From: Escherichia phage Perceval
Reading direction: 5' to 3' (one strand)
DNA length: 50,143 bases
Sequence record: OV696612
The notes under the pieces are model-generated. The model was not told the DNA's origin. It saw nothing but the letters and a program-made list of their open reading frames with translations, and made no database searches. The translations under genes were made by a program, and so were the position numbers. The stretch's first letter is position 1. Every line of letters begins with the position of its first letter. This document shows, one piece after another, positions 41,102 to 42,170 of the stretch.

Positions 41102-41128
41102 AGCCCGCATAAGTGCGGGCTGCTTTTT
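41102..41128 (+). terminator. rho-independent terminator (plus strand), overlapping the hydrolase gene stop
   Basis: AGCCCGCA-TAAG-TGCGGGCT followed by GCTTTTT. Confidence 0.6.
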
Positions 41129-42170
41129 ACAGGTCAGCGTTTGTTTTTTGTTGTTGGGTAGCGGTTTTTATGGGGGTTCCCAGGTTTTTAGTAAACCACT
41201 CAACAACTCTGTTTATAATAATTGGCTGATACCATGTATTATCGCCATGCTCGGCCCCTTCTACCAGCACGTACTCAGCGTTATCACCGTTCTTCTTCAA
41301 CATCCTGAATAGTTTGGCGCTTTGCTCAGGTGAAACCAGAGTGTCTTTGCTACCATGCATAATAAGAAATGGGGGTTTTACTCCTTTCATATGTCCGATT
41401 GGACTGGCGTTTAGCGCTTTTTCTTTTGACGCTGTGATGGGGGCTCCCGCAAAATTTCTGAATGCAGGGCCATTGATCATTAAGGCTTCGGTTACGGCAG
41501 GAGAGCGATGAACCTCCTGCACTGATTCAGGGAACCCCTCGCCAATATTCAACAAGTCAGAAATCCCATAAAGTGTGGCAACTGCCTGAACATCTGAGGA
41601 TTGCTGAAGAAAGTCACCTTTATCAAAGGTTTTGTCACCATTTGTAGTTCCCATCATCTGGGCAAGCCATCCACCGGCAGAGTCACCCAGAACTCCGATT
41701 CTTTGAGGATCAATCCCATAATTGCTGGCATGCTCTCTCAGGTAACGTATTGCAGCTTTTCCATCCTCAACTGGTGCTGGAAATGTATCAGGAATTGTTC
41801 TGTATTCTACAGCGGCCACAACAAAACCAGCTTCTGCCAGAGCCATTCTCATTTCAATAAATTTGTCATGTTCAGAAGACATGAATCCGCCGCCGGGATA
41901 ATAAATAATGGCTGGTTTTAAATCATTTGTTCGCGGGACAAGAACTGACATGTGAAGCTGTCTGACAGAACGAGTTCCTTTTATCTGGGAATAAACAACA
42001 TCACCAATGAGATCGACCTGGTTTCTGGTCGGTGAAACACTAATGATATCTGCACCCGGGGTGTAACCAGGAAGATTAGTCTGGACAGGTGTTGCACAAC
42101 TCCCGACCGACATGGCCATTGACATACCATACAATAGTGTTGCAGATGATAATATCTTGTTAATTTTCAT
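41127..42170 (-). CDS. secreted alpha/beta-hydrolase (esterase/lipase, HSL-type) lipoprotein
   Basis: 347 aa; signal peptide with lipobox-like VGSC; oxyanion-hole YYPGGGF and nucleophile elbow GDSAGG; catalytic His near C-terminus (EGAEHGD). Confidence 0.75.
   Translation of the reverse strand: MKINKILSSATLLYGMSMAMSVGSCATPVQTNLPGYTPGADIISVSPTRNQVDLIGDVVYSQIKGTRSVRQLHMSVLVPRTNDLKPAIIYYPGGGFMSSEHDKFIEMRMALAEAGFVVAAVEYRTIPDTFPAPVEDGKAAIRYLREHASNYGIDPQRIGVLGDSAGGWLAQMMGTTNGDKTFDKGDFLQQSSDVQAVATLYGISDLLNIGEGFPESVQEVHRSPAVTEALMINGPAFRNFAGAPITASKEKALNASPIGHMKGVKPPFLIMHGSKDTLVSPEQSAKLFRMLKKNGDNAEYVLVEGAEHGDNTWYQPIIINRVVEWFTKNLGTPIKTATQQQKTNADL

Follow-up and report, generated by a model that had tools for sequence, protein, structure and literature searches.

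An exported serine esterase encoded in the nin region of the Escherichia coli prophage Perceval, probably of the feruloyl esterase type

The protein family BD-FAE comprises bifunctional feruloyl/acetyl-xylan esterases. Feruloyl and acetyl esterase activity on xylan-derived substrates has been shown for its founding enzyme only, and the paper describing the crystal structure of that enzyme assigned its catalytic triad to Ser128, Asp237, and His269 (PMC8165983). In the plant pathogen Dickeya, the enzymes FaeD and FaeT have been classed as feruloyl esterases of family CE10 (PMC10319131). Here, we analyzed a 50,143-nucleotide stretch of DNA (record OV696612; referred to below as the window), which matches the E. 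coli LF82 chromosome at 100% identity and represents a lambdoid prophage integrated beside icd. The prophage has been named Perceval, and the gene studied here is LF82_159 or PERCE_52 in the literature (PMC9928086). Its enzyme class, a generic annotation of the gene, and the classical architecture of a moron were already known. On the evidence below, the gene is probably an independently transcribed moron of Perceval and its relatives, encoding an exported, CE10-like serine esterase of the BD-FAE/FaeT type that acts on hydroxycinnamoyl or carbohydrate esters.

The esterase open reading frame (ORF) runs on the minus strand from an ATG at position 42170 to a stop codon at 41127-41129 and encodes 347 amino acids.

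41127..42170, minus strand: esterase coding sequence, 347 amino acids (LF82_RS05875, WP_000700204.1), identified by ORF, RefSeq, Pfam BD-FAE, and PHROG 3341

RefSeq labels this ORF as an alpha/beta hydrolase. The early-right neighbors O, P, ren, emrE, ybcK, ylcH, ninB/ybcN, ninE, ybcO, rusA, and Q are all on the plus strand, so that the esterase gene is convergent to ybcK and divergent to ninB/ybcN. The Pfam profile BD-FAE (PF20434) matches the product with 153.9 bits, where the cut-off is 26.8 (E = 5.5e-45; the match spans positions 7-214 of the 215-position profile), and the PHROGs profile phrog_3341, annotated "esterase," matches with an E value of 1.3e-129. These scores place the reality of the ORF far above chance. 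An ORF of this length on the opposite strand within the nin region, with the motifs YYPGGGF (residues 90-96) and GDSAGG (residues 162-167), is also what the original prediction, made from the sequence, had described. The esterase gene is a real, intact, selected, and expressed accessory gene of the prophage.

BD-FAE is the top match among 10 overlapping Pfam families, including Abhydrolase_3, which scores 81.3 bits and thereby exceeds its own cut-off. The residues expected to carry out catalysis are located as follows.

41883..41903, minus strand: YYPGGGF, oxyanion-hole loop, residues 90-96, aligning with the oxyanion region of 6xyc/6tkx
41670..41687, minus strand: GDSAGG nucleophile elbow, residues 162-167, invariant in 23 homologues
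41679-41681, minus strand: Ser164 codon, aligning with Ser128 of BD-FAE (6XYC chain residue 121 plus 7)
41343..41345, minus strand: Asp276 codon, catalytic acid, aligning with Asp237 of BD-FAE
41247..41249, minus strand: His308 codon, catalytic base, aligning with His269 of BD-FAE

HMMER aligns Ser164, Asp276, and His308 with residues 121, 230, and 262 of the 6xyc chain (plus 7 in each case to account for truncation). All three esterase residues are invariant in an alignment of 23 homologues and in 46 of 46 Escherichia alleles, as are the G162-D-S164-A-G166 elbow and the loop P92-G93-G94-G95-F96. The original prediction had named missing triad residues as an outcome that would speak against it; the triad is intact and aligns to the BD-FAE crystal structure. 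An AlphaFold2 (AF2) model, built from a shallow alignment of 22 sequences that all share more than 60% identity, places the triad residues after strands 153-162, 268-273, and 298-303, Asp276 and His308 lying in loops, with a helix at 167-175 following the Ser164 elbow. We read these modeled strands as the canonical beta5, beta7, and beta8 of the alpha/beta-hydrolase fold. In the esterase, the signal peptide is followed by about 50 N-terminal residues that BD-FAE does not have and that are modeled with low confidence. The best solved relative is 6nkf, a goat-rumen esterase (E = 1e-37), followed by the gut carbohydrate esterases 6mly, 6xyc, and 6tkx, and Foldseek searches with the AF2 model return these relatives in the same order. 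Moreover, the top 50 PDB matches in Foldseek are all esterases or lipases of the alpha/beta-hydrolase fold at a probability of 1.0. By its predicted activity, the protein is an alpha/beta-hydrolase-fold serine esterase.

The original prediction had assigned the protein to the hormone-sensitive lipase (HSL) family. The GDSAG motif agrees with this label, but the defining HGG(G/A) oxyanion motif does not: HGG is missing from the whole protein, which has Y-P-G-G-G-F in the corresponding loop, and the BD-FAE score is almost twice that of Abhydrolase_3. The label is therefore imprecise. An HSL-type enzyme, be it a general short-chain carboxylesterase or a lipase, acting on lipid or host-derived esters and not on those of plant phenolics, for instance in the macrophage vacuole or gut mucus, is nonetheless an alternative to be weighed, although we regard it as rather unlikely. 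It could explain the GDSAGG motif, the Abhydrolase_3 match above cut-off, the deposition of the top PDB match, 6nkf, as a "lipase," and partial NCBIfam matches to the HSL-type esterases LipQ and LipP1. However, all NCBIfam matches are partial in coverage and fall short of their cut-offs by 4- to 10-fold. The NCBIfam models for LipQ, LipP1, chloramphenicol hydrolase, Aes, PaeX, tannase, and polyhydroxyalkanoate depolymerase all remained far below their cut-offs and were not used for naming.

The likely substrate class is suggested by relatives of the enzyme. The esterase aligns with 63% identity to a Dickeya aquatica protein (P0079) that carries the UniProt name "Ferulate esterase." P0079 is encoded four genes away from a faeD-type paralogue that is 47% identical to the esterase and is flanked by a LysR gene in divergent orientation. 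In a published table (PMC8386352 supplement), faeD corresponds to DAQ1742_00888 and faeT to DAQ1742_00893, and by locus-tag and coordinate order, P0079 was assigned as the faeT product. Closer homologues point in the same direction. Of the four relatives nearest to it outside Escherichia, three (P0002, P0004, and P0005; 74 to 80% identity) have a phenolic acid decarboxylase gene (PF05870) 15 to 35 nucleotides upstream of the esterase gene, with a divergent LysR gene at P0004 and P0005; the fourth, P0003, is found in an island with a SPATE autotransporter. Across species-representative loci, the decarboxylase adjoins the esterase in 10 of 80, spread over alpha- and gammaproteobacteria (Serratia, Symbiopectobacterium, Mangrovibacter, Martelella, Acinetobacter, Azospirillum, Aeromonas, and Erwinia). 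Most of these decarboxylase loci also have a LysR gene in divergent orientation. An esterase freeing ferulic or p-coumaric acid, followed by a detoxifying decarboxylase, would form a coherent two-step module. Homologues sharing 56 to 80% identity reside on the chromosomes of two groups, plant-associated bacteria (Dickeya, Pectobacterium, Pantoea, Kosakonia, Rhizobium, and Sphingomonas) and gut bacteria (Klebsiella oxytoca, Sutterella, Parasutterella, and Desulfovibrio). For an HSL-type lipase, these neighborhoods are unfavorable, as they suggest the metabolism of aromatic acids and not of lipids.

Other neighborhoods of homologues were observed as well. In eight loci of Desulfovibrio, Parasutterella, and Sutterella (L058, L070, L073, L077, L079, L081, L084, and L093), a FAD_binding_2 reductase with a Tat signal adjoins the esterase, and five of the eight also contain a small cytochrome c3-like protein. 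Together, these two proteins correspond to a split flavocytochrome, a class that includes the respiratory reductases for cinnamate, urocanate, and fumarate. The FAD_binding_2 reductase family includes cinnamate reductases (bioRxiv 10.1101/2022.12.26.521950), but it is too diverse for this neighbor to give more than a hint. A 73%-identical homologue without a signal peptide is present in the 57-kb Escherichia phage PHB10 (MK524177.1; L008, positions 1-7000), just upstream of rus and Q, within a chromosomal-looking block that contains genes for a LysR regulator, an amidohydrolase, a gluconolactonase, an aromatic alcohol reductase, and an HxlR-type regulator. The same pairing of HxlR and esterase genes is found on chromosomes of Raoultella, Enterobacter, Pantoea, and Serratia (L017, L018, L020, and L021).

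The ends of the protein carry features related to its localization.

42099..42170, minus strand: signal peptide, residues 1-24 (MKINKILSSATLLYGMSMAMSVGS), with a charged n-region and a hydrophobic core
42096..42098, minus strand: Cys25 codon, candidate lipidation site (lipobox V-G-S-C), sole cysteine of the protein
41130..41144, minus strand: C-terminal tail TNADL, residues 343-347, local form of the family ending [PD][ND]A[NSD]L-COOH

The N-terminus (MKINKILSSATLLYGMSMAMSVGSC followed by ATP) has two lysines among its first seven residues, no acidic residue within residues 1-31, and an uncharged hydrophobic h-region. N-terminal signal peptides are also common to most esterase homologues, and the predicted export of the protein is well supported. 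The original prediction had specified a signal peptide of the lipoprotein type. The signal peptide itself stands, and Cys25 satisfies permissive patterns like PROSITE PS51257 and G+LPP. The strict consensus [LVI][ASTVI][GAS]C fails owing to the glycine at -2, and a signal peptidase I site, S-C-A followed by T, overlaps the Cys25 position. We consider lipidation at Cys25 plausible and somewhat more probable than not. This residue, the only cysteine available, is kept in 46 of 46 Escherichia alleles and in all nine full-length variants fetched from the 90%-identity cluster, including that of E. marmotae, and the nearest relatives show S[AT]GC at this place, with the cysteine retained in P0002, P0003, and P0005. 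A soluble periplasmic enzyme, cut by signal peptidase I after S-C-A26 and thus not a lipoprotein, is the somewhat less likely but realistic alternative. The S-C-A/T junction satisfies the -3/-1 rule, the strict lipobox does not match, and most homologues in the wider family have AxA signal peptide sites and no cysteine. In addition, natural variants have tyrosine in place of Cys25 in P0001, the E. coli cluster representative, and in P0004, from the nearest clade. The retention of Cys25 across alleles and nearest relatives, together with the permissive lipobox matches, argues against this soluble form. According to the Lol sorting rule, alanine at +2 directs a lipoprotein to the outer membrane. 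A lipidated esterase, having alanine at this position, would be sorted accordingly.

The C-terminal ending [PD][ND]A[NSD]L-COOH is shared by approximately 109 of 120 homologues (P0001-P0120), and its last leucine (L347) is invariant in the 23-sequence alignment. It is missing from the seven or eight homologues that are truly devoid of a signal peptide (318-residue forms, for example P0030, P0034, and P0044), so the tail goes together with export. It may serve in sorting, stability, or autoinhibition.

The esterase gene occupies a discrete cassette, for which the following elements were found.

40787..42434, no strand: 1,648-bp cassette in place of DLP12 ybcL-ybcM, from BLAST against MG1655
41101..41122, no strand: G+C-rich, terminator-like hairpin, 5 nucleotides past the esterase stop, between the convergent ybcK and esterase genes; 9-pair stem with 6 G-C pairs
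42171..42617, no strand: divergent intergenic region from the esterase gene to ylcH/ninB(ybcN), presumably holding the esterase promoter

In the DLP12 prophage of E. coli K-12 MG1655, ybcL and ybcM lie between ybcK and ylcH/ybcN. The statement in the original prediction that DLP12 holds these genes at the position of the esterase is confirmed by this gene order and by the swap of the cassette in BLAST. The window flanks are 96.5% (38501-40786) and 95.3% (42435-44700) identical to K-12, and the cassette between them (40787-42434) has no counterpart in K-12 by BLAST against MG1655. The G+C content steps on both sides, from 0.33-0.38 in ybcK to 0.40-0.475 in the cassette and to 0.50-0.525 in the nin genes. 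The hairpin has a T-run on the plus strand only and looks, on that account, like a better terminator for transcripts in the emrE/ybcK direction than for that of the esterase. In the 264 bp of cassette-specific sequence upstream of the gene, a scan for sigma-70 promoters gave no minus-strand site matching at least 9 of 12 positions, and the number of sites did not exceed that in shuffled sequences.

Published RNA sequencing data of LF82 (PMC9928086, Tables S1 and S4) were used to follow transcription in the lysogen. The values are given as log2 of the fragments per kilobase per million (FPKM), with two values per condition for the esterase.

B1: esterase 6.92 and 7.19; ybcK 2.9-3.1; ninB 2.7-3.0
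MB1: esterase 6.98 and 7.30
MB6 (macrophages, 6 h): esterase 6.12 and 6.27
LB, stationary phase: esterase 4.38 and 4.13

The esterase transcript exceeds that of the phage neighbors approximately 16-fold. The raw reads in B1 number 1,650 and 1,665 for the esterase, compared to 54 and 61 for ybcK and 10 and 17 for ninB. Transcription in the lysogen that is independent of neighboring phage genes, as seen here in the RNA sequencing data, is one characteristic of a moron. The other, a discrete cassette with distinct G+C content and its own terminator, is seen in the exchange relative to DLP12, the G+C steps, and the hairpin. Expression in the lysogen and the gene neighborhoods of homologues also support the suggestion of the original prediction that the enzyme could act on environmental ester substrates in the manner of lysogenic conversion. 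The transcript is more abundant in macrophages (MB6) than in LB (log2 fold change of 2.26, q = 2.7e-13), as might be expected of an HSL-type enzyme acting on host-derived esters. However, an equal level is reached in B1, apparently without macrophages, which argues against this alternative.

Several points weigh against an exported, independently transcribed hydroxycinnamoyl or carbohydrate esterase. In LB, the esterase transcript is only 3.8-fold above the local background. The source study applied a cut-off of 5-fold above local background for morons in LB (PMC9928086), and for this reason the gene is absent from its moron table. Every NCBIfam equivalog match is far below its cut-off, and the AF2 model is mediocre (mean predicted local distance difference test score of 65.9); the triad was placed by alignment to a crystal structure and not by geometry. 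P0079 was identified as FaeT from locus-tag order, not from annotation. A 2011 Dickeya paper in the Journal of Bacteriology reportedly describes FaeT as cytoplasmic and weakly expressed; the esterase described here has a signal peptide. We found no published enzyme assay of the esterase itself or of relatives sharing more than 63% identity with it, and enzymes of the BD-FAE type are promiscuous, such that the true substrates could be short esters, acetyl or other. Approximately 70 of the 80 homologue loci have no decarboxylase neighbor. Within the window, tblastn found no phenolic acid decarboxylase or other hydroxycinnamate gene, with nothing below E = 0.7, and the hydroxycinnamate context is therefore borrowed from relatives. 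The same search ruled out a decarboxylase remnant in the cassette or elsewhere in the window. Nucleotide similarity to the nearest relatives starts 10 nucleotides before the ATG and stops inside the esterase ORF; together with the lack of a remnant, this indicates that the prophage captured the esterase alone.

Capture without the decarboxylase partner of its relatives would also suit a passenger gene that currently lacks a function in E. coli. An internal stop codon in one of 45 Escherichia alleles (L110, 6001-7041) and truncated copies in some genomes fit this explanation too. Its probability is nevertheless very small in view of the sequence conservation: the ratio of nonsynonymous to synonymous substitutions (dN/dS) equals 0.09 to 0.14 at a dS of approximately 0.15 among 25 distinct nucleotide alleles, and the triad is intact in 46 of 46 alleles. 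By this measure, the esterase gene is under purifying selection. A passenger is likewise at odds with a transcript well above its neighbors and a position that stays the same across three or more different prophage architectures. Among complete genomes, a few contain 5'-truncated or half-length copies, one of which is labeled "prolyl oligopeptidase family serine peptidase."

The gene is present in 681 of 5,426 complete E. coli genomes (12.6%), always at 95% identity or more, including O25b:H4-ST131. It also occurs at 100% identity in seven sequenced coliphage genomes, among them Lambda_4C10, 4A7, D2, 1W, 3W, and PhiR47_2. Given these numbers and the existence of a PHROG esterase family, the original prediction overstated how unusual an exported esterase is in a phage. 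Viral contigs in IMG/VR contain 44 loci of the Escherichia type plus one distant match, and the gene is nearly absent otherwise. In these 44 prophage loci, the distance from the esterase start to the ninB start is exactly 448 nucleotides in 38 and between 447 and 451 nucleotides in 43. The other side varies: ybcK and emrE are present in 12 loci, ybcK alone in 1, and emrE directly adjacent in 4, and neither was detected beside the esterase in the remaining 27. From this fixed spacing to ninB and variable other side, it follows that the esterase gene and the nin region's left end move together through several phage architectures. In L119, the one locus inspected of the 27 without ybcK or emrE, the convergent neighbor (7081-10989, minus strand) encodes a 1,302-residue invasin/intimin-like protein with repeated Ig-like segments and resembles a second large moron.

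An exported enzyme expressed in the lysogen could in principle act on the cell surface, and morons that modify receptors are a known theme. O-deacetylation of a surface polymer (O-antigen, capsule, enterobacterial common antigen, or peptidoglycan), resulting in receptor change and protection from superinfection, would extend the polysaccharide deacetylation that BD-FAE enzymes also perform (PMC8165983). We consider such a role improbable. PADLOC returned no match, surface-polysaccharide genes are no recurrent neighbor in the approximately 90 homologue loci examined, and most homologues are encoded on the chromosomes of bacteria associated with plants or the gut. Furthermore, the known phage O-acetyl esterases have a different fold, SGNH. 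The receptor-modifying role raised in the original prediction thus finds no support in either PADLOC or the homologue neighborhoods. Membership in a defense system was also considered and rejected, as PADLOC gave no matches for either the esterase or YbcK.

Some further observations concern the surroundings of the cassette. Both here and in DLP12, the variable cassette starts a few bases from the stop codon of ybcK, which encodes a large serine recombinase (39251-40777, plus strand), and homology to K-12 likewise ends there. An 11-nucleotide direct repeat at the cassette edges, AATAATCA[C/A]TT (40780-40790 and 42445-42455), was considered and rejected as a scar of site-specific insertion by YbcK: it is absent at the K-12 junctions and, given its shortness, probably due to chance. 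LF82 also has ybcM, ybcL, and a second emrE at approximately 1,974,500-1,976,400 of the LF82 record (PMC9928086, Table S4). With this copy elsewhere on the chromosome, LF82 holds both alternative cassettes in two DLP12-like elements. The same arm of the prophage contains an intact emrE (38663-38995, plus strand) and an intact nmpC/ompC-like porin gene (44680-45762, minus strand). The NmpC-type porin is disrupted by IS5 in K-12; the Perceval copy reaches a log2 FPKM of approximately 11.2 to 11.3 in B6 in the LF82 RNA sequencing tables.

Returning to the favored hydroxycinnamoyl or carbohydrate esterase, its action could proceed as follows. The Sec signal peptide would carry the protein across the inner membrane, after which it would either be lipidated at Cys25 and sorted to the outer membrane by its alanine at +2 or be released into the periplasm. 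There, the Ser164-His308-Asp276 triad, assisted by the PGGGF oxyanion hole, would hydrolyze ester bonds. The likeliest substrates are plant feruloyl, caffeoyl, and p-coumaroyl esters, such as chlorogenic acid and feruloylated oligosaccharides, and acetyl esters would probably be hydrolyzed as well. Lysogens would thereby gain a dietary ester-splitting activity otherwise missing from E. coli.

To our knowledge, no gene has been assigned to the hydrolysis of chlorogenic acid by colonic E. coli isolates. This activity is attributed to three such isolates (Couteau et al. 2001, as cited in PMC10340781). It is conceivable, though we hold it as a tentative proposal, that the cassette is the genetic basis of the strain-dependent hydrolysis of chlorogenic acid and cinnamoyl esters described for some human colonic E. 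coli isolates. In that case, a temperate phage would spread a polyphenol-processing trait, including to ST131 and adherent-invasive E. coli, by which an outer-membrane lipoprotein enzyme releases caffeic and ferulic acid in the gut. If the proposed substrate class is correct, carriage of a lambda-like prophage would decide whether an E. coli strain splits two kinds of major dietary phenolics, chlorogenic acid and feruloyl esters, whose free acids are bioactive in the gut. The candidate gene is found in about one-eighth of complete E. coli genomes, including those of pandemic ST131 and Crohn's disease-associated LF82, and is carried by plateable phages. It would then add a metabolic, diet-related gene to a list of lysogenic conversion genes dominated by toxins, surface proteins, and defense systems. 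With a different substrate, it would be merely another annotated prophage hydrolase.

Among the closest known systems are FaeT and FaeD of Dickeya. The esterase probably belongs to the same orthologous group, with 63% identity to the product at the D. aquatica faeT position and 47% to the faeD-type paralogue, and shares with them its length, GDSAGG and PGGGF, the N-terminal signal peptide of the D. aquatica proteins, and the C-terminal tail. The link to the assayed enzymes of D. dadantii 3937 is indirect, by way of the D. aquatica sequences. In contrast to these chromosomal genes of plant pathogens, the esterase gene belongs to a gut bacterium's lambdoid prophage, lacks a neighboring LysR regulator, and specifies a candidate lipobox in place of the AxA site. 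BD-FAE (6TKX/6XYC), from a Bacteroidetes xylan polysaccharide utilization locus, is of the same Pfam family (PF20434) and has the same triad, residue for residue, with a Foldseek probability of 1.0 and TM scores of 0.58 to 0.69. However, it is only 24 to 25% identical, and no polysaccharide utilization locus surrounds the prophage esterase. Lip_vut4 (6NKF), from a goat-rumen metagenome, has the same motifs and 30% identity over residues 48-330 (E = 1e-37); it adds fold and not function, as no published substrate profile was found. The HSL family (bacterial family IV, Abhydrolase_3, including E. coli Aes) has GDSAG, the alpha/beta fold, and a Ser-Asp-His triad in common with the esterase, which differs from it in having PGGGF in place of HGG(G/A) and a profile score for this family lower than that for BD-FAE. 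Aes is cytoplasmic, unlike the exported prophage esterase. Finally, among lambdoid morons found at this locus or close to it (ybcL/ybcM of DLP12, bor/iss, nmpC, and sitABCD of Perceval), the esterase stands apart in that its product is hydrolytic and not a surface protein, transporter, or regulator, and, unlike the morons of Perceval, it falls under the 5-fold LB cut-off for listing. It nevertheless resembles them in being an accessory cassette that is transcribed on its own in the lysogen, in its opposite orientation and distinct G+C content, and in its exchange between homologous phage backbones.

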